Shown piece after piece: positions 10,443-58,353 of a stretch of DNA of 64,000 nt. The position numbers were made by a program, and so were the translations under genes. Numbering within the stretch: position 1 is the first letter of the stretch; each line of letters starts with the position of its first letter. The notes below the pieces were generated by a model that saw only the letters and a program-made list of their open reading frames with translations, searched no databases and had not been told where the DNA came from. Source of the stretch: Cytophagaceae bacterium. Lineage in GTDB: Bacteria > Bacteroidota > Bacteroidia > Cytophagales > Spirosomataceae. Where the stretch lies: NCBI GenBank assembly GCA_016722655.1, contig JADKIR010000004.1, positions 1,595,183-1,659,182 of the forward strand, in the 5' to 3' direction.

Positions 10443-13400
10443 TTATCTGAAATACAAGCCCAGACTTTCAAGGGTAGTTTTTTGGTCCGGAGTGATAAAA
10501 TACAGGAACTGGTCTTCACCCAAATAGAGCTTTTTAGGGATACGGGTACCAATGGCGGTGTTAACAGGTTTTATGATTTTTTCAAAAAACTCATCAAAGT
10601 CGCAATAGTATCCGTTTTCGCCCAGAAGAGGTATTTCAAAAGCCACTTTTTTGCCATAGATCATAAAACTTCCTTTTCTGATGATTTTCTCAGCCGGGCT
10701 CTCTTTTTGAAGTTCCAGGTCTTTGGTAGTATTGACCTTGTCGATGTTATCGAGGTATTGCTGCACCTGAATTTGATTCTCGCTGAGAAAAGACAGAAAC
10801 TCGGGTATTTTTTGATTTGTGACGTTTTCAAACAAAACCCTGACGTGGGTGTCTTCGTCAAACATGTCATTGGCAGTATATGAAGGAGCTTTTGCCCTAT
10901 ACATTTTTACGGCTTCATTGAGTTCTGCTTCTGTTTTAGCTTTGATTAATTTACTGACTGACAAAGTTTTAAACATATCCAGGATTTCTTTTTTGCCAGG
11001 TGTAGAGCCGGAATACGTTACCATTTTTACATTGAAATCATCGGTAGTAGCTGCAAAAAAGTATTTTGACTGATTGTCGTAATACTGCTGAATATTGGCT
11101 GGTAAGCCTTTGTCGGCCCGAAGTACATTGATAAATGACTGCGGAAAGTATATTTTTTCGAAATACATATCTTCAGTACCCGATTGCTCTTTTATTTGCC
11201 TGAAAGTAAATCCAATGCTGTAAAAATATTGATAGTATTCCTCGTCGTCAACTTTAAATTTGGCAATAAAATCATCAATGTTTTCCGGTGATTTTTCAAT
11301 GCTTGTAATTTTCAAAACAGAACCCGGCAGGAATTTTTCGACTGATTTTTTTAGAATATCCGAGATAAAATCCTCTTCTGTTTTTGTTACATAATCTTTG
11401 ATGTCAATCTCCACGTGGTCTTTGAGGTATTGGAAAACCTGCTGGGCATTTTCGAAATATTCGATTCCTGATGCCTCGATTTTTTCTATATCTGAATCTG
11501 CAATGAGGTCATTGGTTTTAAGGAAATTCAAAACGGTGTCTTTTTGGAGCATATTTGAAACTGCCTGCTCTACCACTTCTACTGCGGCTTGTTGTACGTC
11601 GGTTTCGATATAAAACCCTACTTTTTCCTGTAGTTCAGATATTTTTTCCGGTGACAACATTATCAGATGCGACTGGAATTTTTCATCCTTAAACATCCTG
11701 ATTTTCTTCTCGGCGTCACCCCAGGCTGCATTGATATTTCCAATTATTTGTGACGGATAGCCCGACAAACCCAAAGCCATATAGCTGTTGGGGTCATAAG
11801 TGAGCGAATCGAGATATTCGACGCCATTGGCTTTGAATCCATATTCTATATGAACAGGTTTTCCGGCTTCTTCTTTTGCTGCCTGATCAAAATTGTCATG
11901 TAGGGCTTCGGGTTGGAAACTATCACCGGCTTTTTGTTTGATGGCTTCGAAAGTGTTTCTTAGCTCCACCAAATCTTTGATTTCGGTAATGGCCGGAAGC
12001 TGACCTATGTAATCAGAAGATGACATGAGCGACCTGCTGATTAAAAGGTCTTTGTAGTTGTTTGATTTGGCACTGCGGTTGTCAAGAATTAACTGCCTAA
12101 GGTTAGCTCCTGCCGGAATATAAGCCATGCTTTGCAGATTTTCGGCGACACCCATGAGGGTCTCGATACTGTTGCTGCGGTCAAAATAGGCGGTATTTCC
12201 TACCATTTTTTTGATTCCGGCCATTTTGTTTTTAACGACTTCAAACTGGGCTTCGTCTAATAGCATCAGGGCTTTTTCTTCAAATGAGGGTTTAGGGAAA
12301 AGACTCATTTCGTTGCCTATCAGAAGTAAACGTTTTGGATGGCCGACGTCGGAAAGGTAGTCGTTAAATAGCTGGATATTAGGGTCTGAAATCCAGAAGT
12401 GTGATTTGATTTTATAGATTTGCTCCAGAAATTTTCCGAAAGTAGGGTTGTCGCTCACTACCGAGAAGTCCTCGAAGGTTCGTTTGTAAGTATCATTCCC
12501 GATTTTGATTTGCAAGTCATCCTGGCTGAAAGTCATGAAGTCATTGATGTTGAAACCGGGGATAAATTTATCAAGATTGATTTTTTCTTTTTTTACAATA
12601 TCATCGATAGGAATGGTGTTGAGGCTTATTTTATCAATCTTTAGCTCGGGAATCAACTGGCTGACAGCAGCTGCGAGTTTTTTGTAATAATCAAGCTTGC
12701 TCAGGCCCGTGAAATCAGACTTTTTCAAAATCACACTACCGGGGATTTTCTCAAGAATGCGGCTTTTTTCCAAAAGCTTGTAATCTTTTATCTGGCTTTT
12801 CAGGCTATTGGAATTTTGACCGGAGAGCAAGCCGGCATATTGCAGCGAGTCAATTTTTGACAATTGGCTTTTTCTAAAACTATCATAGTTTTCATAAAAG
12901 AGATTTCGGGCTGCTGCATAGAAGAATACGTTGAAGTCGCGGTAAATGTCCACTTCATCTTTTTCGAGCCAACGGAGGGCATCAGCCAAAACCAGGTCAG
13001 AAATCAAGCCGGCCGATTGCAGGCTTTTCATGGTGGAGATATAATATGGCCTTACTTTCTCATTGTTGTAGGTGTATTTGAGCGGGTTGTTCTGGTCATA
13101 TTGCAAATTTACATCGAAGCTCATTTTCGCACCAAAAATGGGCTTGAGCCTAAACTTTTCAGGCGATTTTTTCAGGTTTACTTTTTCGAAGTTTTTGGCC
13201 ATATCGAGATAGCCCAGAAAACCCAGCATGGCGGTTTTGTTCATGAGCAGGCTATCGACCGACTTAAGTATGCCGCCATAAATATCCAGCATACTTTTTT
13301 GTTCTTCTTTCAGGGTGACTTTTGAATCAAATATCGCAAGGGGTTGTCCATCAAGCAGATAGCCGTTTATTATCTTTTCTCCCTCGTCGTTGAGTATGTT

Positions 13401-13559
13401 TTCTTTCTTGAGAGTACTTACCATTTTTGCCATTTCGGCTCTGGTGTAGATTTTTTCGTGCTGGGTGATCTGGTCTGTCAGTGCCTGCATCTGTGGGAAC
13501 TGTGCTTTGGCGGCAATCCGGAGGCCCAAAATCAAAGCAATGAATATTATTTTTTTCAT
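10443..13559 (-). CDS. large secreted protein of unknown function (1038 aa)
   Basis: Long uninterrupted ORF with a signal peptide (MKKIIFIALILGLRIAAKAQ). I recognise no domain. A TATTTTTG -7-like box lies about 20 nt upstream of the ATG. Confidence 0.7.
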   Translation of the reverse strand: MKKIIFIALILGLRIAAKAQFPQMQALTDQITQHEKIYTRAEMAKMVSTLKKENILNDEGEKIINGYLLDGQPLAIFDSKVTLKEEQKSMLDIYGGILKSVDSLLMNKTAMLGFLGYLDMAKNFEKVNLKKSPEKFRLKPIFGAKMSFDVNLQYDQNNPLKYTYNNEKVRPYYISTMKSLQSAGLISDLVLADALRWLEKDEVDIYRDFNVFFYAAARNLFYENYDSFRKSQLSKIDSLQYAGLLSGQNSNSLKSQIKDYKLLEKSRILEKIPGSVILKKSDFTGLSKLDYYKKLAAAVSQLIPELKIDKISLNTIPIDDIVKKEKINLDKFIPGFNINDFMTFSQDDLQIKIGNDTYKRTFEDFSVVSDNPTFGKFLEQIYKIKSHFWISDPNIQLFNDYLSDVGHPKRLLLIGNEMSLFPKPSFEEKALMLLDEAQFEVVKNKMAGIKKMVGNTAYFDRSNSIETLMGVAENLQSMAYIPAGANLRQLILDNRSAKSNNYKDLLISRSLMSSSDYIGQLPAITEIKDLVELRNTFEAIKQKAGDSFQPEALHDNFDQAAKEEAGKPVHIEYGFKANGVEYLDSLTYDPNSYMALGLSGYPSQIIGNINAAWGDAEKKIRMFKDEKFQSHLIMLSPEKISELQEKVGFYIETDVQQAAVEVVEQAVSNMLQKDTVLNFLKTNDLIADSDIEKIEASGIEYFENAQQVFQYLKDHVEIDIKDYVTKTEEDFISDILKKSVEKFLPGSVLKITSIEKSPENIDDFIAKFKVDDEEYYQYFYSIGFTFRQIKEQSGTEDMYFEKIYFPQSFINVLRADKGLPANIQQYYDNQSKYFFAATTDDFNVKMVTYSGSTPGKKEILDMFKTLSVSKLIKAKTEAELNEAVKMYRAKAPSYTANDMFDEDTHVRVLFENVTNQKIPEFLSFLSENQIQVQQYLDNIDKVNTTKDLELQKESPAEKIIRKGSFMIYGKKVAFEIPLLGENGYYCDFDEFFEKIIKPVNTAIGTRIPKKLYLGEDQFLYFITPDQKTTLESLGLYFR

Positions 13560-13609
13560 GATATTTAAGATTTCCTCAAAAATAAGGGATTTTAAATAAG
13601 GTTATGCCT

Positions 13610-13646
13610 GAAAACCAAAAAAGCAGCGATTTTGGGTCGCTGCTTT
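13610..13646 (-). terminator. rho-independent terminator; left copy of a 37-nt direct repeat (36/37 identical to 17569-17605)
   Basis: gaaaaccaaaaaagcagcgattttgggtcgctgcttt. Stem agcagcga (13622-13629) pairs with tcgctgct (13637-13644). On the minus strand a U-run follows. Confidence 0.8.
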
Positions 13647-13675
13647 TCTTCTAATGAAATAATTTGCAATAATTA

Positions 13676-14149
13676 TCAGATCCCATTTTTTACCAATTTT
13701 CCATCTTCATATTTCCCGATTTCTGATTTCAAAATGGGAGAACTTGCTCCACCTTCAAGATAAATAATCAAAGTTTGCCAATTTTTAGGCACAAATTCAG
13801 TGTAAATCTTATAGTCTTTAAAGTTTCCAAGTCCAATATTTAATTCTTTGTCGTTTGAAAGCGTAACAATAAGCTTTATTGTACCTTCACCAGTTTTTGA
13901 ATTTTCTTTGATTTTTAGTGGGGTTGGCTCACTAACATTTATCATTTTTAAGTTCTCAAAAACGAGTACCGGGCTTCCATTGCTTTTTAAGGTATTGAGA
14001 TTCACATCCTCGATATAAATCTTAAAATCCTTAATTTCAATATTTTCATTGTTGTTGAAAATAAAATTTGGCTCCGATGTCGGCTCAATTAATTTTGAGC
14101 AGGAAGAAATTAAAATTAGTAATGGGAAAAATTTGGCAATTGTTTTCAT
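13676..14149 (-). CDS. hypothetical lipoprotein (157 aa)
   Basis: Signal peptide with a lipobox (LILISSC). AT-rich. No recognisable domain. Confidence 0.6.
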   Translation of the reverse strand: MKTIAKFFPLLILISSCSKLIEPTSEPNFIFNNNENIEIKDFKIYIEDVNLNTLKSNGSPVLVFENLKMINVSEPTPLKIKENSKTGEGTIKLIVTLSNDKELNIGLGNFKDYKIYTEFVPKNWQTLIIYLEGGASSPILKSEIGKYEDGKLVKNGI

Positions 14150-14230
14150 ATTGCAGAGATATAAAATTTTCTAATTATTTAAAATATAAGTTAATTGTAT
14201 AGAGTTTTTCTGAATTGTTTTCCGTAAAAA

Positions 14231-14707
14231 CTACCCCGCAACCATCGTATTTTTATCCTGATTTAATAGTGCTTCCCCATCCAAATAAATCAGATAATTG
14301 AGTTGTTTTTCAGGATTATAGAATTCAGGTAAAATTGATTTGAAAAAAAGATTATTGGTCGATTTTTGACCATTTGAATATTCCGATTGGGTATTGTTGA
14401 CACTATAATAGAAATAAGTTTTTAAGTTATCAATCGATAATTCTCCTTGTCTGGGTAAATTTTGACTTAATTTCTCTCCAAAATATAAGGTTGATCTGTT
14501 AAATATCAAGGTTGAGTCGGCTCCATTTTTAGCACCATTTTTTATCACAATTTTTGAAATATCAAAAGTCGTTTCTTCCAGATTTCTGATAAATTTTGGA
14601 TCCTTTTTTTCACAGGAAAACATATTCAAAAGCAATATTAAATATAAAAGGTTTTTCAAACTACTGTTAATTTTAAGCTTAATTATATTTTTTAAAACCT
14701 TTTCCAT
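14231..14707 (-). CDS. hypothetical lipoprotein (158 aa)
   Basis: Lipobox-like LLLNMFSC. AT-rich. Abuts the upstream gene, with its start at 14707 and that gene's stop at 14709. Confidence 0.55.
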   Translation of the reverse strand: MEKVLKNIIKLKINSSLKNLLYLILLLNMFSCEKKDPKFIRNLEETTFDISKIVIKNGAKNGADSTLIFNRSTLYFGEKLSQNLPRQGELSIDNLKTYFYYSVNNTQSEYSNGQKSTNNLFFKSILPEFYNPEKQLNYLIYLDGEALLNQDKNTMVAG

Positions 14708-14708
14708 A

Positions 14709-15299
14709 TCAATTTTTTAATATCGGACAAGTTAGCTTTAAAGAACTTATCAGTTCTGTATTTAATTTACTTTTATATATCGAAAAATTACCCCATATAG
14801 AAAAGTGGGCTGTAGTACAAAGATTTAAATTCAAATCACCATGGAAAACACCAGATGATTCTTTGTTAAATCTTCCTGACTCCATGGCATATTGCAAATT
14901 AGTGGGAGCGTTGGGGTCTATTAAATGTCTAATTCCACCATTTGAGTATTTTTGATAAAGTTGCAGCCCATAACCAAATCCGATATTTATTTTAGATTTA
15001 AAGACAGATTGATTAAGATTCAATACAAGTTTGGTTGAATTTATTTGATTTTCATTATTTACAAAATTGGGTACTACTTCTTCAGTTTTTATTGAGGATC
15101 TGGAATTTTGTATTTGAATACCTCCATAAGTGTTTTTTGCAATTTTTCTGTTGTAAGTACATCCAAAGGCATTTCCCCATAAATCTCCAGAGGTGAAGAA
15201 AGTTTTGCCAAATTGAAATTGGAAATTTCTTTCCTGGCCATTAGAAAATAAAGGGTTAAAAATCAAAACTATTAAAAGGGTATATAATACTTTCATCAT
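14709..15299 (-). CDS. hypothetical exported protein (196 aa), possibly a small beta-barrel
   Basis: Signal peptide MMKVLYTLLIVLIFNPLFSNGQ. Has alternating aromatic/Gly-rich segments. No C-terminal Phe. Confidence 0.55.
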   Translation of the reverse strand: MMKVLYTLLIVLIFNPLFSNGQERNFQFQFGKTFFTSGDLWGNAFGCTYNRKIAKNTYGGIQIQNSRSSIKTEEVVPNFVNNENQINSTKLVLNLNQSVFKSKINIGFGYGLQLYQKYSNGGIRHLIDPNAPTNLQYAMESGRFNKESSGVFHGDLNLNLCTTAHFSIWGNFSIYKSKLNTELISSLKLTCPILKN

Positions 15300-15324
15300 T
15301 ATTTCGATTCTTTTTTAATTAAAT

Positions 15325-15345
15325 GGGAGGGTATTAAACCCTCCC
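15325..15345 (-). other. strong intercistronic hairpin inside the island operon
   Basis: gggagggt (15325-15332), loop attaa, accctccc (15338-15345). This is a perfect 8-bp GC-rich stem between the 466-aa and 196-aa genes. Confidence 0.6.
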
Positions 15346-15353
15346 GTAATTTT

Positions 15354-16754
15354 TTATTCTTTTAGTTTAAATTTAAAAATTGTAGATTCGTAAATGGTAT
15401 CAAGTGGGTCCCAATAAAATACATCAGTGTCTGCAATTAAATCCTTGCCCGGATCACTTACAATTGAAAAACCTATGCCTGCTTTTATAGTACCAGCTGA
15501 ACTTGTTGACAAACCTAATTTATCTTCCCAACCTGCGTTTACTGTGAAAGTTCCATTATCATTCCAATCTTCCTCCCTCCAGTTGAACCTAAGAACAGTG
15601 TTAGCTGAACTCCAAGATGTCAAAAGAGGAACCGTATAAACCCAGTATTTATCTGTTATAGCATTTCTTGTAGAAGGTTCTAATTTTGGTGTTGTATATG
15701 ATACTCCAGTAGTTCCATTTGGAGAAACTACAACTCTTAATCTCATCTCTGGAGCACCAGAGGCCCATTTTTCCACCACCTTTAAAGCATCATCATTATT
15801 GAATTTCATACTTGTAACTTTTAGAGGGTCTCCATCTTTTCTGGGAGAAGCAGTTGAAGCAATTAAACTACTCCATGCTGAAGCTACACCTGAAACTATA
15901 CTTCTAATTTTGAAAAAATATTTTTGGCCAGCAGTTAAGTTTGTTACATATAAAAAATTTGTATTTGATGCGGTAGTAGAGAGCAAAGTAAATGCTGAAC
16001 CTGTGCTATAATATATTTCATAGGCACTTTCACCTGTAACATCAAGCCATGTTAAATAAAAACTATTTGGCGTTGTATGTTGCAAACCAAGACCGGTAGG
16101 TACGTTATAAACTCTCCCATTTGCGTTTTTCTTTTTTTTGTCGTTAGTTAATTCAATTCTTTCATTAAAACCGACTACTATCACTGGCTGGTCTGGATTT
16201 ACATTGTGATTAATTAAAGCTTTAATCTTACCTTTTCCATAACAAATTAAATAATCTTGGTTATGGTGGTCCAAAGCGGTAACCAATATTTTATGCTTTT
16301 CAACATCCCATTTTTCAATATTTATTGGAATTGAAATGTTTAGTTTGGGATAGGCTAGAATATATTTTTCAAGCCTTCCCCTGAATGATATATCGTCAGT
16401 TGAAATTAATTGCAAGAACCTAGAATTTTCGCTTACCAAACTTGATAAAATAATATCGAAATCACCATCCTTCTTAAGCAATGCATTTGATTTCAAAAGT
16501 TGTCTAAGTTCAACATTATCAAGATTTTCTGCGATATTTTTTGCAATATCATTTAACATGATATTTATTTCCGGTGTAAAATCTGAATTATTATTTATAG
16601 CCCTTAAAGATTTTTGATTATAAGGAATAACCGTGCTTGGAACCAAAAAGTCATCAGTTGTTTTTATATAATTTTGTGGAAGTTTTTCGTCATCATTTTT
16701 ACAAGAAAAAGTAATACTTGTTAAAATGGCAATTGACAATACAATTTTTTTCAT
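15354..16754 (-). CDS. hypothetical lipoprotein with a fibronectin type III-like domain (466 aa)
   Basis: Lipobox ILTSITFSC. The central segment PTGLGLQHTTPNSFYLTWLDVTGESAYEIYYSTG...LTAGQKYFFKIRSI has the Fn3 pattern. Confidence 0.65.
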   Translation of the reverse strand: MKKIVLSIAILTSITFSCKNDDEKLPQNYIKTTDDFLVPSTVIPYNQKSLRAINNNSDFTPEINIMLNDIAKNIAENLDNVELRQLLKSNALLKKDGDFDIILSSLVSENSRFLQLISTDDISFRGRLEKYILAYPKLNISIPINIEKWDVEKHKILVTALDHHNQDYLICYGKGKIKALINHNVNPDQPVIVVGFNERIELTNDKKKKNANGRVYNVPTGLGLQHTTPNSFYLTWLDVTGESAYEIYYSTGSAFTLLSTTASNTNFLYVTNLTAGQKYFFKIRSIVSGVASAWSSLIASTASPRKDGDPLKVTSMKFNNDDALKVVEKWASGAPEMRLRVVVSPNGTTGVSYTTPKLEPSTRNAITDKYWVYTVPLLTSWSSANTVLRFNWREEDWNDNGTFTVNAGWEDKLGLSTSSAGTIKAGIGFSIVSDPGKDLIADTDVFYWDPLDTIYESTIFKFKLKE

Positions 16755-16921
16755 AACTTTATGTGTTTAATTGTTAAAAATTAAATTTTCAAAGCCCTCT
16801 GTATCTGCCAGGATTTTTGGGGGCTTTGTTGTATCAAAGGTCTGAAAGGTTTTTGAGAAAAAAAATCGTCATTTGTCAAGAAAAAAATATACAAATGGCA
16901 ATGTATGTAGCTACATTATTC

Positions 16922-17521
16922 CTACTCTTTTTTGGTTTTTATAGCCTTCCCTCTTACACGACTGAGATTTGTGGCCGTGGTGTTGAGATAAGAGGCTATC
17001 ATATACAATGGTACTTTCTGGCTTAAACCGGGGTGCATGTTGTCGAGGTAAATAAGTCTGTCCTCTACTTTTCTAAGCTGATGCATACGGTTTCGATATT
17101 CGAGCTGTAAAAGATATTTACGGTAGATACTCAAAATGTGTGGGAATAATTCAGCGTTTTGACTTATTAACTTCTCAAACAGTGCTTTACTAATACTGCG
17201 TGCATTTACCTTTGTTTCTGCCCTGATATTGCTGTGTGAAGCTATTTGCAATTCAAAACTTTCGACCTGATAAATCCATTCATTTTCCGGAAGTATCCAA
17301 TAGGTTATTACTTTTTCAGATTCTGGTCCAGATTCAGATTCTGTGTCCGAAAATTCTCTCACTACACCGCTTTCAATAAAGTATATTTTGTCAGAGACTT
17401 CGCCTGTTTTTAGAAGATATTCATGTATGTCAAATTCTTGAATTTCAAATGATTGATCAATGATGTGTGACAATTCAGAAGAAATTGCAATGTGTTTTTT
17501 GAGATATTCTGTTAGCTGCAT
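16922..17521 (-). CDS. Crp/Fnr family transcriptional regulator (cNMP-binding domain plus C-terminal HTH)
   Basis: 199 aa. Has an IYFIESGVVREF beta-roll segment and a C-terminal IASYLNTTATNLSRVR HTH. The architecture matches the paralogue at 54589-55167. Confidence 0.75.
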   Translation of the reverse strand: MQLTEYLKKHIAISSELSHIIDQSFEIQEFDIHEYLLKTGEVSDKIYFIESGVVREFSDTESESGPESEKVITYWILPENEWIYQVESFELQIASHSNIRAETKVNARSISKALFEKLISQNAELFPHILSIYRKYLLQLEYRNRMHQLRKVEDRLIYLDNMHPGLSQKVPLYMIASYLNTTATNLSRVRGKAIKTKKE

Positions 17522-17568
17522 ATTTTGATTGTGCCTTTTATAATTTATGCAATTTAGAAAAAAATTCA

Positions 17569-17605
17569 GAAAACAAAAAAAGCAGCGATTTTGGGTCGCT
17601 GCTTT
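17569..17605 (-). terminator. rho-independent terminator of the TolC-adaptor operon; right copy of the 37-nt direct repeat
   Basis: gaaaacaaaaaaagcagcgattttgggtcgctgcttt. Stem 17581-17588 pairs with 17596-17603. Confidence 0.8.
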
Positions 17606-20792: not shown

Positions 20793-20811
20793 TTTCGTTT
20801 TCTTACAGGCA

Positions 20812-21677
20812 TTATGATTCTTTCTCTTTCACCGACTGAAAAGGCGTTTGTCCAAATTTCTCCTTGTAGCCTTTGATAAAATGTGATACGCTTTCATAAC
20901 CGATACTTTCCGAAACCTGCTCTACATTGCCCAGCTTGTTTTTCAACATAAAAGCCGCATGTTCCAGTTTTTTGTCTTTGATATATTTCCCTGGGGACTG
21001 GCTAAATTTTTCAATAAAATCTCTTTTAAACGACGAAAGGCTTCGGCCAGAAAGTCTCGCCAGCTCGTTGATGTTGAGGGTTTTACGGCAAATGTGTCCA
21101 CAATATAGTCCAGATCGGCTTTTTGTCCGGCATATATCGAGAAAAGCAATTGCCTGAGTTGCTGATTTTTGTCAAATTCCAAAAGATGTAATAATAGCTC
21201 CTGTAGTTTTAGTTTTAAAATCTGATTATGATACCGGCTCTGGGTTTTGAAATAGGGCAGGAGTGAGTCTATATATTTCCCGAATGCCTCATTGGATTGC
21301 AGCACCAGCAACCAGGAGTTTTGAGTTGCGGCAGGCTGTGTATGGGTCTGAAATATTTCCAGATGTTGACTTACAAATTCCTTGAGGAGCTTTTCTTCGA
21401 AAAAAAACACCAGGCTTTTATAAGATTCGTTGATAGACTCCGACATCAGATAGTAGCCCCGCTTTACAAAAAGCACATCGCCTTTTTTTACCCGCACCTC
21501 AGAATTGGAGCTACTGAAAATCTTGTCTCCTTCAAGTATGTACAGTACAGCATTTTCTTCAAAAAACACATCGTTTTTGGAAGGATAAATATTGCTCCTG
21601 TAAGCCACAAAAGTGCTCTCCTGAATCTTCAGGGACTCAAATTGGTCGGCTTTTATTTCAGAGGGTACACGGAGCAT
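20812..21677 (-). pseudogene. AraC family transcriptional regulator, disrupted by a frameshift
   Basis: The N-terminal cupin-like domain is read from 21677 in one frame and ends in nonsense (..AVKPSTSTSWRDFLAEAF..*). The complete AraC HTH domain (RKTLNINELARLSGRSLSSFKRDFIEKFSQSPGKYIKDKKLEHAAFMLKN...GYESVSHFIKGYKEKFGQTPFQ) lies in a different frame and ends at TAA 20812-20814. The frames swap near 21087-21130. Confidence 0.8.
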
Positions 21678-21678
21678 A
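21636..21678. repeat. 43-nt direct repeat, copy A (covers the AraC start codon and first 14 codons)
   Basis: ctcaaattggtcggcttttatttcagagggtacacggagcata, 41/43 identical to 22466-22508. Confidence 0.85.
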
Positions 21679-22465: not shown

Positions 22466-22508
22466 CTCAAACTGGTCGGCTTTTATTTCTGAGGGTACAC
22501 GGAGCATA
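22466..22508. repeat. 43-nt direct repeat, copy B (orphan duplicate of the AraC 5' end)
   Basis: ctcaaactggtcggcttttatttctgagggtacacggagcata. On the minus strand it encodes MLRVPSEIKADQFE and then terminates after 3 more codons. Confidence 0.85.
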
Positions 22509-22597: not shown

Positions 22598-25063
22598 ATG
22601 AAGAAATTATTCACCATTTTGTTTTTTATTCTTCCCACATTTTTGCTTGCCCAAACTCAGGTAACTGATTTCCAGACCATTAGCAAGTCTCCAATTGATT
22701 TCAAAATTTTGGGAAAATCTGGCAACAAAATATTTGTTTGGGCAGATAAACCCGAAGGAGCGGATGAAATTTTGGTCAAGGATATTTCAGGTGATAAATT
22801 CAAAGTTTTCTATAATCTGAAGAACGAAGAGTGGATAAACAGCTTTGATTTTTCTGGTAAAACGAAATATATCTCAGTTTTCGATTCAGACCAAAGACAC
22901 ATTCTAAAACTCAATTCTGATAACTCTGGATTTGAAAAAATCAAATTGCCTGACAACACTGATCAGGTTTATTCGCTGGCAGATAAATTGTTTTTTACAA
23001 AGAATAGAAGGTTATTCTTGTTGGAGAAAGTTAAATATTTGTACCAATTCAAAATTTTTAAAAATGAATATAAATTAATTCAAAAACTGAATGACAATCA
23101 GATTCTTATAAAATATGATGATTACTCAGTTGGAATTGTGGGTAGCAATCTGGCAGAAAAAACACTAAATCCAGGGGTCCAATTTAATGGGTTTTCCTTT
23201 GAAAATGAGCAATTGATTTTTTACTCTCCGGAGGAAATCGTGATTTGCGATAATTTTTTCAATATTATTACTAAGAAAAAAGTAAACTTTTATGAAAAGC
23301 CTAAAAATGCTTATTTCAAAGTATTCACTGATAAGAATTACATTATATCAGTAGGGTATAAATTTAAACTCCATAATTATTACACCATCGAGCCTAACTT
23401 TATTGTAAGTAAATCATTTATTTCTGAGGATAGATTGATGGTTTTAAATGATAGCGGCTATGTTACGAGAGGAGAGCTTTCTATTGATGGAGGACCTACT
23501 AATTTTAAGAAAGTTTCTAATTTCCTTTCGATTGGCTCCGAAGTTTATTTCTTATCATTCAATTATGGTAATTCTTCCAGCAATGGCTTGTTTCTTAAAG
23601 TTTTAGATCATGAACAATTTAAGATTAAAAGCTATAAAATTTCTGATTCACTTTTCAAATCTCAATCTTACCATGGAAAACAGCAAATAGGATCTTTGGT
23701 CAATATTGGTAATCAGCTTGTTATATTTTCTAATAGCTCACCTCTACCACTAGCATTATATGACTTAACAAAAAAAGAATTAGTAAAATCAGATATTAAA
23801 ACTCAAAACTATGTAGGAAGTATCAACCAAAATGAGGCTTCTTTTTTGGTTAAAGAAGGGGAGACTATTGTGGAATATGACCTATCGGCCATAACAAAAA
23901 ATACGTTTTTAAATGAGAATATAAGCAAATGGGAATCTGGAATTAAAAAGCATTTTAAAGTGGCTGACGATCTTATATTTTTAGTAGAAAAGCCTGATAA
24001 ATCAAGTTTTTTGGCAACTATAAAAGATAATAAGCCACATATTTTACTTAATACTAATGTATTCTCAAATGGATTTAACTTATATGCCGACTGGAAGATT
24101 GATAAATTTCGAAATTTTTTAGTATTTCAAATAGGTCAGGAGATTAAAGGATTTGAATACGATAACCAGAAAAATCTATTAACAGAAATAAATATCGGAA
24201 ATGGAAATTACTTTGCAGAGGTAGGCAAATATTATGATAAATTTTGGTTTCAGCGTAATTCCCAATTATTGTCAATTGATGAAAATCTTCATGTAAATAT
24301 TTTAAGAAATTTTTCCGGTTACCCCAAAGTTTTAAACATTTTTGAAAACAACGATGTGCTTTATTCCACTGATACTTCCTTGAATTATTTCTCCAATGAT
24401 AATAAAAAGGATTTAAAACTTTCTGATGGCTATACAGAAATATTAAGTATTGAAAAAAATAAAGTATTATATAAAGCCGGAAGGAAAATTATGCAATTTA
24501 TCCCTTCCTCAGGAGCTTTGACTGTGAGCTATTCATTTCCGAATAATTTTTTTGATGTGATGTCAACGAGTAATTATAGACTTATTGGAGATTACTATAG
24601 TTTTGATTATAAGATAATTGTCAATCAAACGGCTCAGGTTTATAATTTTGAGAAAGAGTATATGCCTTATAAAGTCATTGAAGGAAATTTTCTATTTTTT
24701 GTTAAAAACAACATAAGTAAGCTTAATATTCTAAATCTGAAAACGCAATCCAAAAAGTCAATAGATTTACCAAAATACCCCATTGAAACGAGTCTTATTG
24801 CAAGCAATGATACATTTGCACTGGTTAGGATTGACAAAGAGGTTTATTCAATTAATCTTTTGGAAAATGATTTGAAATTATCACCATTGGATTTAGATGA
24901 AAATTGCATTCAGTCAAATTTTGGGTCACTTTATCTTTTTTCTGATAAATCAGAATTTTTAATTTTTGATATTAAAACGGGAAAAATTGTCAGGCATAAA
25001 CTCAATCTTTCTGGGTTTGGTTTTAATCAATATTTATCAAAAAAAATGGGAAATATTTATTAG
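22598..25063 (+). CDS. hypothetical secreted protein (821 aa), probably the N-terminal part of a split T9SS cargo gene
   Basis: Signal peptide MKKLFTILFFILPTFLLAQ. Very AT-rich. Ends at TAG 25061-25063, in the same frame as the next ORF. Confidence 0.6.
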   Translation: MKKLFTILFFILPTFLLAQTQVTDFQTISKSPIDFKILGKSGNKIFVWADKPEGADEILVKDISGDKFKVFYNLKNEEWINSFDFSGKTKYISVFDSDQRHILKLNSDNSGFEKIKLPDNTDQVYSLADKLFFTKNRRLFLLEKVKYLYQFKIFKNEYKLIQKLNDNQILIKYDDYSVGIVGSNLAEKTLNPGVQFNGFSFENEQLIFYSPEEIVICDNFFNIITKKKVNFYEKPKNAYFKVFTDKNYIISVGYKFKLHNYYTIEPNFIVSKSFISEDRLMVLNDSGYVTRGELSIDGGPTNFKKVSNFLSIGSEVYFLSFNYGNSSSNGLFLKVLDHEQFKIKSYKISDSLFKSQSYHGKQQIGSLVNIGNQLVIFSNSSPLPLALYDLTKKELVKSDIKTQNYVGSINQNEASFLVKEGETIVEYDLSAITKNTFLNENISKWESGIKKHFKVADDLIFLVEKPDKSSFLATIKDNKPHILLNTNVFSNGFNLYADWKIDKFRNFLVFQIGQEIKGFEYDNQKNLLTEINIGNGNYFAEVGKYYDKFWFQRNSQLLSIDENLHVNILRNFSGYPKVLNIFENNDVLYSTDTSLNYFSNDNKKDLKLSDGYTEILSIEKNKVLYKAGRKIMQFIPSSGALTVSYSFPNNFFDVMSTSNYRLIGDYYSFDYKIIVNQTAQVYNFEKEYMPYKVIEGNFLFFVKNNISKLNILNLKTQSKKSIDLPKYPIETSLIASNDTFALVRIDKEVYSINLLENDLKLSPLDLDENCIQSNFGSLYLFSDKSEFLIFDIKTGKIVRHKLNLSGFGFNQYLSKKMGNIY

Positions 25064-31529: not shown

Positions 31530-31813
31530 GATTGCAATTTTTTATACGTTAATTAATCAATTTAAAAACACAATTCGCCGGGCATACCCAAATAGCTTTC
31601 GACTTTTTATGTTTTCTTTTCTAATTATAAGGTGCTTAAAAAACACAAAAATCAGGATCGGAACTTCCTCATTTCTTATAACTTACATAGCCTTTTTGGA
31701 GCGGGCAGCACCAAGAAGGCGGTATTTGGGGCTGCAAAGATAGAAAAATGTTTTCTTATTACAAATAATCACTCTAAAATTCTTAAGAAAATTTCAGGAC
31801 ATAATCATTTGGT

Positions 31814-31855
31814 AATAAAACATTAAGCCCGGCACTCTTTCAAGGCCGGGCTTAA
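31814..31855 (-). terminator. terminator hairpin; copy A of a 42-nt direct repeat (41/42 identical to 32441-32482)
   Basis: aataaaacattaagcccggcactctttcaaggccgggcttaa. 9-bp stem aagcccggc (31825-31833) pairs with gccgggctt (31845-31853). Confidence 0.75.
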
Positions 31856-31875
31856 AAGATTTTTACTATCAGCAT

Positions 31876-32361
31876 TTATTTATTAATTACTTCAATTTCA
31901 GTTATTCGAAATGGTAAAGCACTGTCATAAGATACTGGAGTATTGGTTGGTTCTTCCGGTTTGTCCCAGGTGTTTTTGAGTTTTTCGAAATTATCTTTTG
32001 AAATATATGTATTTCCACTAACCCTCACTAATGTATTGCTTTTAAGATTTGCAGGTAAATTACAAGGCCTAAAACAACATAATCCACGTTTTTCTTTATA
32101 TCCTGGAATGCTAAATGAAACTCTTGAAGACTTTTCTGACCAATTTAGGGTATCTCGCAATGACAATTCATAGGCTTTTGTTTCATCATCTCCGCTTATC
32201 CAATATTCCCCATTTTTTACTGTAACCAGCACCACGGGATTTTCCGGATCACATATAGAAAATTCTTTGAGTATTTTCTTATCTTCAGAACAAGATAGAG
32301 AAATGATTAACACAAAAGAGGCGAAAAAAATATGTGATTTTATTTTCGGATTTGATTTCAT
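31876..32361 (-). CDS. hypothetical lipoprotein (161 aa)
   Basis: Signal peptide with lipobox (LIISLSC). AT-rich. No recognisable domain. Confidence 0.6.
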   Translation of the reverse strand: MKSNPKIKSHIFFASFVLIISLSCSEDKKILKEFSICDPENPVVLVTVKNGEYWISGDDETKAYELSLRDTLNWSEKSSRVSFSIPGYKEKRGLCCFRPCNLPANLKSNTLVRVSGNTYISKDNFEKLKNTWDKPEEPTNTPVSYDSALPFRITEIEVINK

Positions 32362-32440
32362 AAGTTGTTTATATTTAATTATTTGTTAAAAATATGTATG
32401 AATATTATAGTAAGCAACAAATAATTATTTTACGGTTGGA

Positions 32441-32482
32441 AATAAAACAATAAGCCCGGCACTCTTTCAAGGCCGGGCTTAA
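32441..32482 (-). terminator. terminator of the leuA-like gene; copy B of the 42-nt direct repeat
   Basis: aataaaacaataagcccggcactctttcaaggccgggcttaa. Stem 32452-32460 pairs with 32472-32480. Confidence 0.75.
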
Positions 32483-49549: not shown

Positions 49550-50128
49550 AATCTTTCTGAATGTGATATTGATTCTCTCACCTACTTCTTTGACTTTAGG
49601 AATCTGATGCAGCCAGTGGTCCTGCATTTCACCCTGCATCATGAGCAAGCTCCCACTTTCAAGCAATAAACTTCTGGTACTATTTTGTTGAACTTTGTGT
49701 TTTATCTGAAATTTTCTGGCTGCACCGAGGTTCAATGAGGCAATCACCGGATTTTTGCCTAGCTCCGGCTCGTCATCGGCATGCCAGCCCATAGAGTCGT
49801 TGCCGTTTCGGTAGTAATTGAGCAATGCAGAGTTAAAATGGTGTCCGGTTTTTTGTTCAATTAATTTCTTTAAAATCAATAAGGTATCTGAAAACGCTAC
49901 AGGAATGTTGACCAGGCCTGAGTATTTGTAAGTTTTACCTTCTGCTGCATACCAGGCTGTTAACCGAGGAAACAACACTTCTTTACCGTAGATTTTCATG
50001 CCTTCCTGCTTCCAGTGGGTTTCGTTTTTTATTGTTTCAAAAAAATCATTCGAAACAAAGTCGGGATAATAAAGCAATTCTCCCTCAAAAGGCAAAAGGT
50101 TTTGATTTTCGAAGAGATTCATTACCAT
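49544..50128 (-). CDS. alkB: alpha-ketoglutarate-dependent dioxygenase AlkB
   Basis: Has MGWHADDE (HxD) and RINITFR motifs. The ATG at 50128 (or 50122) avoids the overlap with the upstream gene that the ORF-track start at 50158 creates. Confidence 0.8.
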   Translation of the reverse strand: MVMNLFENQNLLPFEGELLYYPDFVSNDFFETIKNETHWKQEGMKIYGKEVLFPRLTAWYAAEGKTYKYSGLVNIPVAFSDTLLILKKLIEQKTGHHFNSALLNYYRNGNDSMGWHADDEPELGKNPVIASLNLGAARKFQIKHKVQQNSTRSLLLESGSLLMMQGEMQDHWLHQIPKVKEVGERINITFRKIL

Positions 50129-50133
50129 ATTTT

Positions 50134-51348
50134 TCAGTATCCAAAACCAAATAACCATAATGGAATGGTGCTGCCGTAACCTTCATCTATGCCATCTTTA
50201 GCCAGAAATGCATTGGGCATACCATATATCTGGTGCATCGATTTGTTTTTTCCACCCACTTCAAATACATATTTGTCATTGACCATAAAGTCACCTCTTA
50301 CTGGGAAGCTCAGCGTGTTTTTGGCACCTACCGCATTCATAAAGAAGGTTTCTCTTTCGGTACCAGTGTTGGGCTCTGTCATGGCCAGTGCATGTATTAG
50401 GTTAGAGTTTTCCAGAAAAACCTTGTCCGGCTTGGTGAGTGCACTGTCTGATTTTTGGGGTGCTTTTAAGGCGTTGAGCACATCGGCCCGGTCAAGATAA
50501 TCCAAAAAAACCAACACTCTTTGTCTTGGAATGTTGAGCTGGTCCGATATTTTCTGAATATTTGGACTATACGGCACCAATTCCGACAATAAACCCAATA
50601 GCTTTTTGATTTGCCTTACCGAAGAGTAGTCGATATTGAATATTGGTGGTAAATCTACCTCAATCACCTGATTGATCATGGCTTGCAGGCGGTCGTTGTA
50701 TTTTCTTCCGGCTTCTTTATAGAACGGATAGTAACCGTTTCGAAGGTAATTTTTGAATTTTTTAGTCAATTCAGGGTGCTTCGTCAATAATTCCTGAGCT
50801 ATTTCGGTGTGATTGACGGTGAGCTCATCGATAGAAATTACGGGGAATGATTCCATTCCTTCAAAAATTAAAAATTCTCTAAAGCTCAGTCCTTTAAGAT
50901 TGTACACGTCGGCTCTGCGACTCAAATCACCCACACCTTCCATCACATCCAACGCCGAAGAAGAGGTCACCAATACTTTTACATCGGGAAGGCTGTCATA
51001 AATATTTTTCAATTCCCTCGACCAGCCTTCGTATTTGTGTACTTCATCTATGCCAAATCTCCGGTATCCTCGGTCATAAAGCTCCTCCACGGTTTCGAGC
51101 AGTGTATTTTTACTGAAATACAGATGGTCAAGACTGAAATATATGGCGGTTTTGGTGTTGGAGTTTTCTTTTAAATATTGCTTGAGCAATGTGGTTTTTC
51201 CCACGCCTCTGCAACCTGTGATAACAATAAGGCGGGCATCAAAGTTGATCTCAGGATACAAATATCTCCTGATATCTGTTTCAGTAACAGCCAGAAGCCT
51301 TTCCGATATTTTTTCGAGAGAATGCATTTTGTATAAATAATTTAACAC
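50134..51348 (-). CDS. AAA+ ATPase of the COG1373 / DUF4143-containing type
   Basis: 404 aa with Walker A GCRGVGKTTL and a Walker B-like FGIDEVH. Its stop lies 5 nt upstream of the alkB start. Confidence 0.7.
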   Translation of the reverse strand: MLNYLYKMHSLEKISERLLAVTETDIRRYLYPEINFDARLIVITGCRGVGKTTLLKQYLKENSNTKTAIYFSLDHLYFSKNTLLETVEELYDRGYRRFGIDEVHKYEGWSRELKNIYDSLPDVKVLVTSSSALDVMEGVGDLSRRADVYNLKGLSFREFLIFEGMESFPVISIDELTVNHTEIAQELLTKHPELTKKFKNYLRNGYYPFYKEAGRKYNDRLQAMINQVIEVDLPPIFNIDYSSVRQIKKLLGLLSELVPYSPNIQKISDQLNIPRQRVLVFLDYLDRADVLNALKAPQKSDSALTKPDKVFLENSNLIHALAMTEPNTGTERETFFMNAVGAKNTLSFPVRGDFMVNDKYVFEVGGKNKSMHQIYGMPNAFLAKDGIDEGYGSTIPLWLFGFGY

Positions 51349-51514
51349 AAATGTATAATGTTAAATATAAATAACAAAAATAAAATGTGATAAATATAAA
51401 AAATATAATTTAAAAATGTTAAATATAAATAACATTTTTATTTGCTTTTGTACTGTATATCAAGTATTTAAATATTTGATATTTGTCAAATAAATTAATG
51501 GTTGTTTGGTGAAA

Positions 51515-55243: not shown

Positions 55244-55807
55244 ATGACAAAAATTTTACAATTGTTCGGTACAGAATACCAATTAGCCAAATCTCTTATC
55301 AATAAAGATGAAAGGGCTCAGAGGTATTTTTACGAAAAGTATTCCGGGAAGTTTTTGGGGATTTGTTGCCGTTATATAAGTGACAGGATGGAAGCCGAAG
55401 ATGTAATGGTGGAAAGTATGATGAAAATTTTTGAAAAAGTAAACCAGTTTAATTTTTCGGGAAGTTTTGAAGGTTGGTCAAAAAGAATAGTTGTAAATGA
55501 AGCACTGATGTTTTTAAGAAAAAGAAAAAGCATGAACGTAGAATATGATGATCAGTATTTTGACGAACCGGAAATTCAAGAAGCTGGAAATTTGGAAACG
55601 GAAGACTTGTTGGAAATTGTAAACTCATTGCCGGAAGGCTATAAAACGGTTTTTAACCTTTATGCAATTGAAGGATACAGCCATACTGAGATTAGCCAAT
55701 TGCTCAATATTTCAGAAGGCACATCCAAATCGCAGTTGAGCAGAGCAAGAGTAATTTTGCAACAAAAAGTGATGAAAAACAACACTATAAATTATAATCA
55801 TTTATAG
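55244..55807 (+). CDS. ECF-type RNA polymerase sigma-70 factor
   Basis: The ATG at 55244 gives MTKILQLFG. Region 2 (EDVMVESMMKIF) and region 4 (GYSHTEISQLLNISEGTSKSQLSRAR) are recognisable. The ORF-track start at 55028 overlaps the divergent Crp gene. Confidence 0.8.
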   Translation: MTKILQLFGTEYQLAKSLINKDERAQRYFYEKYSGKFLGICCRYISDRMEAEDVMVESMMKIFEKVNQFNFSGSFEGWSKRIVVNEALMFLRKRKSMNVEYDDQYFDEPEIQEAGNLETEDLLEIVNSLPEGYKTVFNLYAIEGYSHTEISQLLNISEGTSKSQLSRARVILQQKVMKNNTINYNHL

Positions 55808-55809
55808 AA

Positions 55810-56625: not shown

Positions 56626-56726
56626 ATTTTTTATATTAATTTCTTAACATCAAATTTTTCTCAAAAAAATATTGTCTGGCCGGCAAATTATACAAACAAA
56701 TACAAGATTTAAATTATTTACAAAAT

Positions 56727-57785: not shown

Positions 57786-57806
57786 TATTTTAATTTTTAA
57801 ATTTAT

Positions 57807-58078: not shown

Positions 58079-58092
58079 CAAAAAAAGTACTA

Positions 58093-58165: not shown

Positions 58166-58179
58166 CTTGATTCCATAAA

Positions 58180-58251
<72 letters not shown>

Positions 58252-58353
58252 CTATTAGAGTTTAAATGTAGGAATCGCCCGGGTAATCAGGATTTCTAAT
58301 TACTCATTTTTTTCTGAAAATAATTTTGAACAAAATAAATTCTATTAAATAAA

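Follow-up and report, generated by a model that had tools for sequence, protein, structure and literature searches.

An islet of five genes, 3.9 kb long, lies between an efflux adaptor gene and a gene for a 1038-aa secreted protein in the 64-kb stretch of Cytophagales DNA analyzed here (the window), and it is bracketed by direct repeats of a 37-nt intrinsic terminator. The most probable explanation (we put it at about 75%) is that the islet comprises horizontally acquired, strain-variable envelope genes that entered the gap between the adaptor and 1038-aa genes by “insertion with long target duplication.” Transposase-free gene gain by this route is rarely studied; the class of insertion is known, and is seen here with non-restriction cargo in Cytophagales.

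The repeats had been noticed in a sequence-only reading, and a pattern search of the window confirmed them. Copy B (on the left, GAAAACCAAAAAAGCAGCGATTTTGGGTCGCTGCTTT) and copy A (on the right) are in direct orientation and 36/37 identical (single-base differences between repeat copies are unreliable in MAGs or in contigs of about 1x coverage). Within the window, just these two matches to the 37-mer occur at three or fewer mismatches, and 100 shuffles used as a chance control gave none. On the minus strand, both copies form a 10-13 bp G+C-rich hairpin followed by a U-tract (folding energy -14 to -18 kcal/mol; z about -4), which bears out the earlier claim that each is a rho-independent terminator for minus-strand transcripts. 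Their placement agrees with that reading as well: copy A lies 20 nt past the adaptor stop codon and ends the TolC-type efflux operon, and copy B falls after the last island gene and before the promoter region of the 1038-aa gene, where the predicted -7 element (TATTTTTG) ends 18 nt upstream of the start codon. The Bacteroidota -7 promoter consensus is TAnnTTTG. An assembly artifact is excluded, because the identical copy pair and the genes between recur in four MAGs built from long reads as well as in short-read assemblies made independently.

The composition of the island is foreign. GC content is 0.311 between the copies versus 0.409 in the 2 kb on either side, and GC at third codon positions (GC3) is 0.21-0.34 in the five island genes, compared with 0.43-0.46 in the 1038-aa, adaptor, OEP, and AraC genes and 0.62 in gpsA; windowed GC and the codon-position check thus both uphold the AT-rich block that had been proposed. 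The 1038-aa gene is genome-like (GC 0.40). All five island ORFs are on the minus strand (199, 466, 196, 158, and 157 aa; Table 1). The first, a Crp/Fnr-like regulator, has a GC content of 0.36, between the island and flank values. The second is a lipoprotein with only 31 homologs found, for which the AlphaFold model (pLDDT 70) and a fold search returned FN3 domains only, and homologs show a DUF3103 match in the N-terminal domain. Its best matches outside the lineage (57-64% identity) come from contigs of 30-32% GC, and the closest of them are accompanied by a conserved leader of ~110 nt. Judging from these sequences, such low-GC contigs are likely to be of the donor type. The 196-aa protein is distantly homologous to the 202/203-aa genes of other alleles, and the 158-aa lipoprotein is 98% identical to a 162-aa gene found in alleles L044-L046. 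As had also been claimed, Pfam and NCBIfam searches reveal no integrase or transposase in the five proteins. The block has no terminal inverted repeats, and no intron or other RNA family was detected in it.

Table 1. Positions of the islet, its neighbors, and the further repeat-bounded insertions in the window
Feature	Position	Strand	Remarks
1038-aa secreted protein, flanking gene	10443-13559	-	No family match
Predicted -7 promoter match, TATTTTTG	13577-13584	-	Downstream of copy B
Terminator copy B, left-hand direct repeat	13610-13646	-	Closes last island gene; upstream of 1038-aa promoter region
Island gene 5, 157-aa lipoprotein	13676-14149	-	Final gene ahead of copy B
Island gene 4, 158-aa lipoprotein	14231-14707	-	
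Island gene 3, 196-aa secreted protein	14709-15299	-	Small outer-membrane-protein look
Internal G+C-rich hairpin	15323-15347	.	Terminator-like; between 466-aa and 196-aa genes
Island gene 2, 466-aa lipoprotein	15354-16754	-	Lipobox SITFS|C; FN3 beta-sandwich
Island gene 1, 199-aa Crp/Fnr-like regulator	16922-17521	-	cNMP-binding domain (domain search)
Terminator copy A, right-hand direct repeat	17569-17605	-	Intrinsic terminator of OEP (TolC-like)-adaptor operon
HlyD-type periplasmic adaptor, 465 aa	17626-19023	-	Flanking core gene
43-nt direct repeat (41/43), third instance	21636-21678 and 22466-22508	-	First 14 codons of AraC-family gene duplicated
47-nt direct repeat (45/47), second instance	31809-31855 and 32436-32482	-	Terminator of leuA-like gene duplicated
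161-aa lipoprotein gene	31876-32361	-	Inside 47-nt repeats; GC 0.30

The sequence-only reading had predicted an empty site with one copy of the 37-mer, and such a site is present in the MAG “Bacteroidetes bacterium LEAD1” (L025), in which the adaptor gene, a single copy, and the 1038-aa gene are contiguous. JGI contig L037 provides a second empty site. Copy A is the counterpart of the sole copy in LEAD1, and the downstream flank of copy B is co-linear with the empty-site sequence. It should be noted that LEAD1 is a sister species (nucleotide identity about 83% on the adaptor side and about 92% on the 1038 side) and that its empty site could, in principle, be a secondary deletion between repeats. 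The outgroup, the more distant Leadbetterella sp. (L022), cannot polarize the change because both the terminator and the 1038-aa gene are absent there. Had the 37-mer been a generic multi-copy terminator, it would be expected elsewhere, and this reading failed: an exact-pattern scan for the hairpin in one genome per species (185,579 species) gave one match, at the LEAD1 empty site, and in JGI metagenomes the hairpin was found in this lineage only, the sole other hit being an unrelated, similar hairpin whose loop differs. A precise insertion that duplicated the target terminator is supported by the empty site, by the uniqueness of the repeat in these scans, by the GC and GC3 values, and by the lack of a recombinase inside. 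The duplicated target stands, on an empty site from a sister species, but the idea of a single recent event does not.

The adaptor-1038 locus is an old, multi-allelic, mosaic hotspot, at which we found empty, one-gene, three-gene, five-gene, and mosaic alleles. The five-gene allele occurs in the window and in L001-L005, and there are two three-gene alleles, Crp-203-157 (L007) and 202-162-157 (L044-L046); L021 has the 202-aa gene alone, and in L036 a Crp remnant (the first ~16 codons) is fused to an outer-membrane-protein-like gene. The Crp gene of the window is shared with L007, and the 157-aa gene with L007 and L044-L049. Every filled allele has the same terminator at its borders; there are two different left and four different right junctions among them, and slightly unequal repeat edges (on its upstream side, the repeat extends past the hairpin by about 0, 7, or 9 nt, depending on the allele). 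Such variation is more in line with recurrent duplication of the target than with a single fixed crossover point. The Crp-side junction is common to the window, L007, and L036, and the 157-side junction to the window, L007, and L044-L046; thus, part of the allele diversity reflects descent with internal rearrangement rather than independent insertions. In L046, 64 nt of unassigned AT-rich DNA, which is not the adaptor gene, precedes the upstream terminator copy. This context suggests a third terminator copy and a two-cassette array, as seen on one 4-kb contig.

The reuse of one site by different cargo could also be read as the trace of a site-specific integrative element or its cis-mobilizable remnant, with the terminator as attB, the repeats as attL and attR, and the integrase lost or acting in trans. 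Direct repeats of 15-60 nt that rebuild a gene 3' end are, after all, typical of tyrosine-integrase elements. (Repeats of this kind are discussed in PMC2853133.) We nevertheless regard this reading as improbable: an integrase is found in none of six alleles and none occurs in the 10-kb flanks, the repeat edges vary, viral contigs contain neither the flanking repeats nor an attP match, and the five-gene block has no match in plasmid and phage records. Furthermore, the same architecture occurs three times in the window with a different repeat each time, so each locus would need a separate attachment site and integrase, and one of the repeats is an unstructured coding 5' end. Because the architecture recurs elsewhere with different repeats, the 37-nt terminator is a target that was duplicated rather than a site dedicated to attachment.

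At the second of these loci, between leuA and rplM, conspecific strains have empty sites (L011, L016, L018), and two-gene forms occur in L019, L014, and L017. In the two-gene allele, the tail of the gene-proximal repeat has clearly diverged from the empty site and the distal copy matches it. This resembles a hybrid attL/attR pair, as would be left by Campbell-type (ends-in) integration, in which a circle or concatemer with a terminator copy recombines through 37-54 nt of homology by means of RecA or a phage single-strand annealing protein, and the reverse reaction yields an empty site plus a circle able to re-enter other cells. At their length, the repeats could sustain short-homology recombination, filled and empty alleles coexist, and cassette swapping between identical terminators agrees. 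However, we consider this unlikely as the source of the islets, since it leaves unexplained how low-GC foreign DNA first got a lineage-unique terminator; in addition, the repeat edges vary among alleles, and no circle junction, plasmid, or viral contig with the repeat was found. Campbell-type integration probably describes later spread rather than origin.

The third locus, at the 5' end of an AraC-family gene, encloses two genes (GC 0.28), one of 63 aa and one, nucleotidyltransferase-like, of 149 aa, which form a toxin-antitoxin-like pair; an empty allele was not found at this site. A fourth case, in the related contig L021, has an AAA_14/DUF4143 gene between the copies of a perfect 54-nt repeat. 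Among the cargo families, we found no integrase, transposase, restriction, or defense genes. Tandem duplication is active in these islets: those at leuA have paralogous 155/158-aa genes and L014 has a 55-nt perfect repeat (155-nt spacing). It could be, then, that a terminator segment was first duplicated in tandem and that unrelated events later exchanged or filled in the DNA between its two copies, as in pathway ii of Lim et al. (2012), a route proposed for similar patterns (PMC3457768). This is slightly more improbable even than a lost integrase: no adjacent terminator-terminator allele without an insert is seen among about 40 contigs, and two rare steps would be required at each of the four loci.

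A strong hairpin is present in three of the four repeats, the AraC coding 5' end being the unstructured one. A host enzyme acting in trans might recognize hairpins or terminators, make staggered border cuts, and insert cassettes, giving terminator-cassette-terminator arrays with repeated use, perhaps in the manner of Cas1/casposase, an IS1634-type transposase with long variable duplications, or an integron integrase. One terminator is indeed reused by different cargo, the L046 context would represent such an array, and HUH Y1 and IS110 transposases, which target hairpins in other bacteria, are present in the lineage. The unstructured repeat argues against this, as do repeat lengths and edges that are not fixed and cassettes without conserved ends, inverted repeats, or a visible attC-like core; the array depends on a single short contig, and no candidate enzyme was found in the window or flanks. 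We judge this model somewhat less likely than Campbell-type integration.

The mechanism that we prefer, tentatively and at a little less than even odds, is break or template-switch capture at the hairpin with fill-in or re-copying. A staggered double-strand break, or a stalled 3' end switching template, would span the hairpin; foreign DNA without homology would be captured at the break; and overhang fill-in or re-copying would duplicate the 37-54 nt that separate the two break points. The resident terminator would be the target and would end up on either side of the insert. Copy A would go on terminating the efflux operon, and copy B would supply a terminator to the incoming genes and shield the 1038-aa promoter, so both neighbors would keep their regulation, which is probably why such events survive. 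Later, the direct repeats and flanking core genes would permit precise excision, cassette swapping, and inter-strain spread by homologous recombination, and mosaic alleles would come from illegitimate joins inside the islet.

Several known systems share features with these loci. Phage “morons” are self-contained promoter-gene-terminator units of deviant GC located between two undisturbed genes, and the islet is likewise a deviant-GC unit that disturbs neither neighbor, but the definition of morons is tied to prophage genomes, and they lack a duplicated target at their flanks. Cis-mobilizable elements (CIMEs) and other integrase-less islands flanked by att sites are also small, with direct repeats that include a host gene end; however, the att site of a CIME is that of a resident integrative element, whereas no such element or attP was found here and three repeats occur in 64 kb. 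Insertion sequences of the IS1634/IS1549 type make target duplications of variable length (tens to hundreds of bp), but they carry a DDE transposase and terminal inverted repeats, and the blocks here have neither. Integron gene cassettes are similarly small, promoter- and recombinase-free, and hairpin-bounded, and arrays, circle excision, and turnover are typical of them. In contrast, no IntI or attI is nearby here, the hairpin, a perfect 27-nt terminator, has neither the R/L boxes nor the GTTRRRY core of attC, and the sites at either end are duplicates of the local target sequence rather than cassette-specific attC sites. The PeSL “mobile regulatory cassettes” of T4-type phages, reportedly described by Arbiol et al. 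in 2010, are terminator-plus-promoter sequences around small accessory ORFs, and, as may be the case here, recombination between the bracketing sequences deletes, circularizes, and shuffles ORFs without a recombinase in the cassette. PeSLs are a multi-copy family across the phage genome, whereas each locus here has its own unique sequence in a bacterial chromosome.

Insertion with long target duplication is a named class (Nobusato et al. 2000, Gene 259:99; Furuta, Abe and Kobayashi 2010, PMC2853133), and several published cases have unique repeats of 45-49 bp that reach over gene 3' ends, inserts of low GC, and no genes for mobility (PMC2853133; PMC3457768). The likeness extends to inserts of a few kb without mobility genes between direct repeats of >30 bp, to a repeat that is genome-unique, single-copy at the empty site, and often over the 3' end of a neighbor, and to insert GC often under the genome average. 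The published surveys centered on restriction-modification genes, and their authors suspected that the cargo itself breaks DNA (PMC2853133); here, no nuclease is encoded, and the cargo consists instead of a regulator with envelope proteins, of a lipoprotein, or of a toxin-antitoxin-like pair. The present examples differ further from those surveys in that they come from Cytophagales, with three cases in 64 kb and one terminator reused by several cargos.

The five minus-strand genes that separate the HlyD-type adaptor gene of the OEP (TolC-like) operon from the gene for a 1038-aa secreted protein are bracketed by direct copies of a 37-nt sequence. The copy next to the 1038-aa gene (copy B) is GAAAACCAAAAAAGCAGCGATTTTGGGTCGCTGCTTT. 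At up to three mismatches it has one other match in the window, on the adaptor side (copy A), and none was obtained in 100 shuffles. Both positions and the single mismatch are as proposed from the sequence-only reading. On the minus strand, each copy reads AAAGCAGCGA-CCCAAAA-TCGCTGCTTT followed by a U-tract, with predicted folding energies of -14 and -18 kcal/mol that no shuffled sequence equaled. Both copies are thus predicted, in agreement with that reading, to be intrinsic (rho-independent) terminators, with a G+C-rich hairpin and an adjoining U-tract after a stop codon; copy A was also called as a terminator by a consensus scan. Downstream of copy B, 18 nt ahead of the 1038-aa start codon, is a putative promoter, a match to the consensus TAnnTTTG.

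Repeats, inserts and neighboring features (positions in the window unless a contig is named)
Feature	Position	Description
Copy B	13610-13646	37-nt terminator repeat
Copy A	17569-17605	37-nt terminator repeat (36/37)
Island gene		199-aa Crp-like protein, cNMP-binding domain; minus strand
Island gene		466-aa lipoprotein, FN3 domain; minus strand
Island gene		196-aa secreted protein; minus strand
Island genes		Two lipoproteins, 158 aa and 157 aa; minus strand
466-aa gene leader	~16755-16870	~110 nt upstream of the gene; minus strand
1038-aa gene	10443-13559	
leuA site repeat	31809-31855 and 32436-32482	47-nt pair (45/47); terminator of leuA-like gene, duplicated
leuA site cargo	within 31809-32482	161-aa lipoprotein gene, GC 0.30
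AraC site repeat	21636-21678 and 22466-22508	43-nt pair (41/43); start codon and first 14 codons of AraC-family gene, duplicated
AraC site cargo		63-aa gene and 149-aa nucleotidyltransferase-like gene, GC 0.28
AraC-family gene	20811-21677	
Amidohydrolase-AraC segment	21700-25600	821-aa gene (22598-25063) and 180-aa gene
ATPase case, contig L021	4738-5996 of L021	Perfect 54-nt hairpin repeat (54/54) around AAA_14/DUF4143 ATPase gene
ATPase case, contigs L040/L041	3577-5340	ATPase_2/AAA_14 gene flanked by hairpin repeats made of 54-nt unit
404-aa AAA_14-type gene	50134-51348	Region 50121-51514
Tandem units	51344-51434	Three 29-nt AT-rich units
21-nt repeat pair	48446/49237	Within coding sequence, low-complexity
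271-aa/352-aa pair	55800-57800	Low-GC; 352-aa protein OMP_b-brl_2
MFS transporter gene	59762-60895	Region 57996-61017
IS200-like Y1 transposase gene	4503-5160 of L056	Corresponds to ~61883 in the window

The block is AT-rich relative to its surroundings, and full calculation agrees here with earlier spot counts: GC is 0.311 between the repeats and 0.409 in the flanks, and GC3 is 0.21-0.34 for the five block genes compared with 0.43-0.46 for the 1038-aa, adaptor, OEP and AraC genes and 0.62 for gpsA. The claim that it carries no integrase or transposase also held, given that searches of the block proteins against Pfam, NCBIfam and PADLOC returned no integrase, transposase, restriction or defence family. 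R, M and S domains are absent from every cargo protein, and a role of the cargo in defence or restriction was rejected because PADLOC and NCBIfam were both blank.

An identical adaptor protein is encoded in four activated-sludge MAGs (GCA_016720225.1, GCA_016708935.1, GCA_016722195.1 and GCA_016718725.1) and in several independent short-read assemblies, and every contig of this set that reaches far enough has the block with both terminator copies. Judged by homologues of its adaptor, the organism belongs to the Cytophagales, close to Leadbetterella, Lacihabitans and Emticicia. An assembly artefact was rejected because the four long-read MAGs agree on the structure with contigs from SPAdes, MEGAHIT and Logan.

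When the hairpin pattern AGCAGCGACCNAAAATCGCTGCTTTT was searched in one genome for each of 185,579 species, a scan that together with the window sets the scope of repeat uniqueness (the window's own complete genome lies outside it), the single match was the MAG "Bacteroidetes bacterium LEAD1" (L025). There one terminator copy joins the adaptor gene to the 1038-aa gene, with gpsA next in line, and a JGI contig (L037) likewise has only a single terminator between its adaptor and 1038-aa genes. Taking one copy and the intervening 3.9 kb out of the window makes it co-linear with LEAD1. An empty site with one 37-mer between these genes, as anticipated from the sequence alone, is therefore present, for this locus in a sister species (identity of LEAD1 to the window is ~83% for the adaptor side and ~92% for the 1038 side), and an insertion that duplicated the target terminator is the supported reading. 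Tandem duplication of the terminator followed by substitution of the intervening DNA is the rival account of the two copies, and to this we allow only the slenderest chance.

In a scan of JGI metagenomes, the hairpin was found in four contigs, namely one equivalent to LEAD1, one with a further allele (L036), and two mutually related contigs from an unrelated organism (L038, L039), in which a look-alike hairpin has a different loop base. Because the matches among species genomes and JGI contigs are restricted to the lineage, bar this look-alike, the terminator is not a generic dispersed element. The possibility that it is a multi-copy sequence at dozens of unrelated loci, raised as an objection at the outset, is rejected by the one match among the species genomes.

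The identity of sister-species contigs (L025, L021 and L036) to the window jumps across the terminator, from ~83% on the adaptor/OEP side to 91-93% on the 1038-aa/gpsA side, which makes the site a breakpoint of homologous exchange as well. In a more distant Leadbetterella MAG (L022), gpsA comes directly after the adaptor gene, with a different terminator between them. This genome cannot polarise the empty state as ancestral, because the block, the 1038-aa gene and this terminator are all missing from it. The 1038-aa gene, which has genome-like GC and no family match and is missing with the terminator from L022, entered the same junction earlier as a lineage-specific gene.

The same terminator brackets several different cargos. 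In addition to the empty and five-gene forms, we found Crp with a 203-aa and a 157-aa gene (L007), a lone 202-aa gene for an outer-membrane-protein-like product (L021), the first ~16 Crp codons fused to another outer-membrane-protein-like gene (L036), and a set of 202-aa, 162-aa and 157-aa genes (L044-L046). The cargo lies between two terminator copies in every allele whose assembly spans both ends (the window forms, L007, L021 and L036); L044 and L045 begin downstream of the expected position of the upstream copy. The alleles are mosaics, in which some segments are common at 93-99% identity and others are wholly different. The 196-, 202- and 203-aa genes and the Crp-fused gene of L036 are mutually only 26-39% identical over aligned stretches. 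Two different left and four different right junctions occur. The duplicated segment starts at the hairpin base in the window; in L036 and L046 its start lies ~9 and 7 nt further upstream, respectively. Overall, repeat boundaries vary by 0-9 nt among alleles, some of which are related by descent, in contigs of low coverage. Base differences between the copies were compared as a possible means of distinguishing target duplication from hybrid att sites, and the T6GG/T7G tail proved variable in both copies (many contigs have ~1x coverage). In L046, the upstream copy is preceded by 64 nt of AT-rich DNA of no recognised source, not by the adaptor gene end, and this single 4-kb contig suggests a third terminator copy and a two-cassette array.

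A search of the whole window for direct repeats returned three long pairs in total, each bracketing a low-GC block (Table). At the second of these, the leuA site, conspecific contigs (L011, L016 and L018; 98-99% identical) are empty, with one terminator copy. A two-gene form lies between two copies in L019, L014 and L017 also have two genes, and the one-gene form of the window is a deletion recombinant between the two paralogues. At the third, the AraC site, the repeat has no secondary structure and its upstream copy is a dead pseudo-start. The 149-aa protein there has a weak DUF6036/AbiEii-like match, and no empty allele was found. The pattern has a further instance in the related contig L021, around an ATPase gene (Table). 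A 21-nt repeat pair elsewhere in the window was dismissed as chance.

Other features of the region deserve mention. The AraC-family gene encodes 244 aa in the window versus 288 aa in other assemblies, probably reflecting a frameshift error or mutation in the window assembly, and the 1038-aa and 821-aa genes are split in several long-read MAGs. The 821-aa gene (GC ~0.29) and a gene for a 180-aa protein carrying a type IX secretion C-terminal domain form a further insertion, because the amidohydrolase and AraC genes on either side of them are adjacent in L022; no repeat flanking this insertion was detected. AAA_14-type ATPase genes, found between hairpin repeats in related contigs (Table), occur as single-gene presence/absence inserts and may be a selfish gene family. 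Strain L050 lacks one gene of this kind that the window has, adjoined there by the AT-rich tandem units. Upstream of the OEP gene, L021 has an IS110-family transposase in place of the AraC gene, and in L056, from the species of the window, an IS200-like gene absent from the window lies just 3' of the nusG terminator. A low-GC pair of genes (271 and 352 aa) comes after an ECF sigma factor gene and immediately precedes the tRNA-Tyr/Gly/Thr-tuf cluster, and an MFS transporter gene lies between tuf and tRNA-Trp/secE/nusG.

Regarding the cargo, lipoprotein signal peptides are present by sequence in the 466-, 158- and 157-aa proteins, and a standard signal peptide in the 196-aa protein. The 466-aa protein has 31 detectable homologues, the closest of which outside the lineage (57-64% identity) are in metagenome contigs with 30-32% GC. 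In those contigs, tandem repeats behind a GerE-type regulator consist of genes with weak DUF3103 matches and, after each of them, one or two genes of ~150-210 aa. The leader of the 466-aa gene, consisting of a hairpin (AAAGCCCCC...GGGGGCTTT) and then conserved AT-rich sequence reaching the ATG, is ~85% conserved with these contigs (four copies in L040, and also in L042). Given that this exceeds the conservation of the proteins themselves, the leader may be a cis-regulatory element. These similarities point to acquisition of the block from a low-GC, Bacteroidota-like donor. An AlphaFold model of the 466-aa protein (pLDDT 70) matched only FN3 domains in the PDB, with no enzymatic fold recognised in that search, and the islet is best described as a regulator and surface-protein set of unassigned role.

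Several known element types were considered and rejected. A phage or plasmid origin does not agree with the absence of the three repeats from IMG/VR or with the lack of a block match in PLSDB and INPHARED. The repeat is a perfect GCAGCGA/TCGCTGC hairpin with a U-tract and has neither the R''-L''/L'-R' boxes nor the GTTRRRY core of an integron gene cassette, and no integrase was called within +/-10 kb. Against a DDE transposon or MITE-like element, the cassettes have no terminal inverted repeats, end-to-end alignments being no better than shuffles (7/7 cassettes), and duplications of 34-54 nt are unlike the short fixed target duplications of DDE elements. An IS200/IS605-type element or PATE is excluded because the hairpin is retained at the empty site as the adaptor gene terminator. 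Group IIC introns, riboswitches and other structured RNAs were set aside, since Rfam at the gathering threshold found only four tRNAs in the window and no reverse transcriptase domain was detected. Transposition of one cassette to several sites was likewise rejected, the 149-, 157- and 821-aa proteins each occurring in one context only. A decayed integrase element (a site-specific integrative element or CIME) is a further rival; no tyrosine or serine integrase was found in six alleles or the 10-kb flanks, and no attP-like copy in viral contigs, and we consider this account very unlikely.

A mechanism has to accommodate a duplicated sequence that is target-derived, with variable length and boundaries, over-representation of hairpins among the targets (3/4), and cassettes with neither a recombinase nor conserved ends. 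We favor, at about 40%, a staggered break, or a stalled and switching 3' end, that would span the hairpin and capture foreign DNA, after which fill-in would duplicate the interval between the break points. Selection would then act on the products. Survivors would be those that duplicated a whole terminator or gene start, because these would leave termination of the upstream operon intact, supply the new genes with a terminator and spare the promoter or start codon of the downstream gene. Both neighbors would thereby keep correct termination and promotion. A dedicated trans-acting enzyme directed at hairpins would speak to the same target bias, and the AraC repeat is the one target without a structure; we regard such an enzyme as quite unlikely. 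For later turnover, the best account is recombination between the repeats and within flanking core genes, plus illegitimate joins in the islet itself. Campbell-type integration by way of short homology is likely relevant to later spread, and as the origin of the inserts it is a real but minor contender beside break capture and fill-in.

Insertion with long target duplication was defined from a comparison of Helicobacter genomes and later found in several phyla (PMC2853133). In such cases a unique repeat of >30 bp (45-49 bp in several) is present once at the empty site and often overlaps the 3' end of a gene, mobility genes are absent and the insert is often low-GC (PMC2853133). The present blocks resemble the class in having filled and empty alleles, repeats >30 bp that are single copy in the empty alleles, a repeat that is not dispersed (1 match in the species genomes and 2 in the window), and an insert of 3.9 kb, below the 20-kb bound, without integrase, transposase or other mobile element. 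Judged from MAGs and low-coverage contigs, and with a sister species providing the empty site of this locus, all the structural traits are present, and the case is one of a known but poorly understood class. It differs from the published surveys in that its cargo has no restriction-modification system, which was a criterion of those surveys and not of mechanism (PMC2853133). Notable are the non-restriction cargo, the reuse of one terminator by several cargos, the empty sites found in nature, and the occurrence of three cases in 64 kb.

Twenty-five years after its first description the class still lacks a mechanism; dependence on DNA breakage by carried restriction enzymes has been suspected (PMC2853133). 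Cargo without a nuclease excludes a cargo-encoded mechanism for these blocks. Together with empty and filled alleles (conspecific at the leuA site), at least five arrangements on one terminator, and further cases only a few kb away, it argues that the process is a general, cargo-independent route of gene addition. The population is sampled by long-read metagenomes, and excision, circles, arrays and junction rules are measurable in it straight from reads. A bolder proposal, which we consider unlikely, is that gene gain at hairpins or terminators is recurrent and host-driven in this Cytophagales lineage, whichever terminator is at hand acting as the duplicated repeat, with cassettes (envelope, toxin-antitoxin, ATPase) added, swapped and removed between copies. 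If true, this would imply a trans-acting enzyme or a specialised break-repair pathway and, with three cases in 64 kb, might supply a sizeable share of the flexible genome. Such a route would differ from integrons and CRISPR in having no element-encoded recombinase and no conserved recombination site, and would share with them the repeat-cassette-repeat logic of an array, as hinted by L046.
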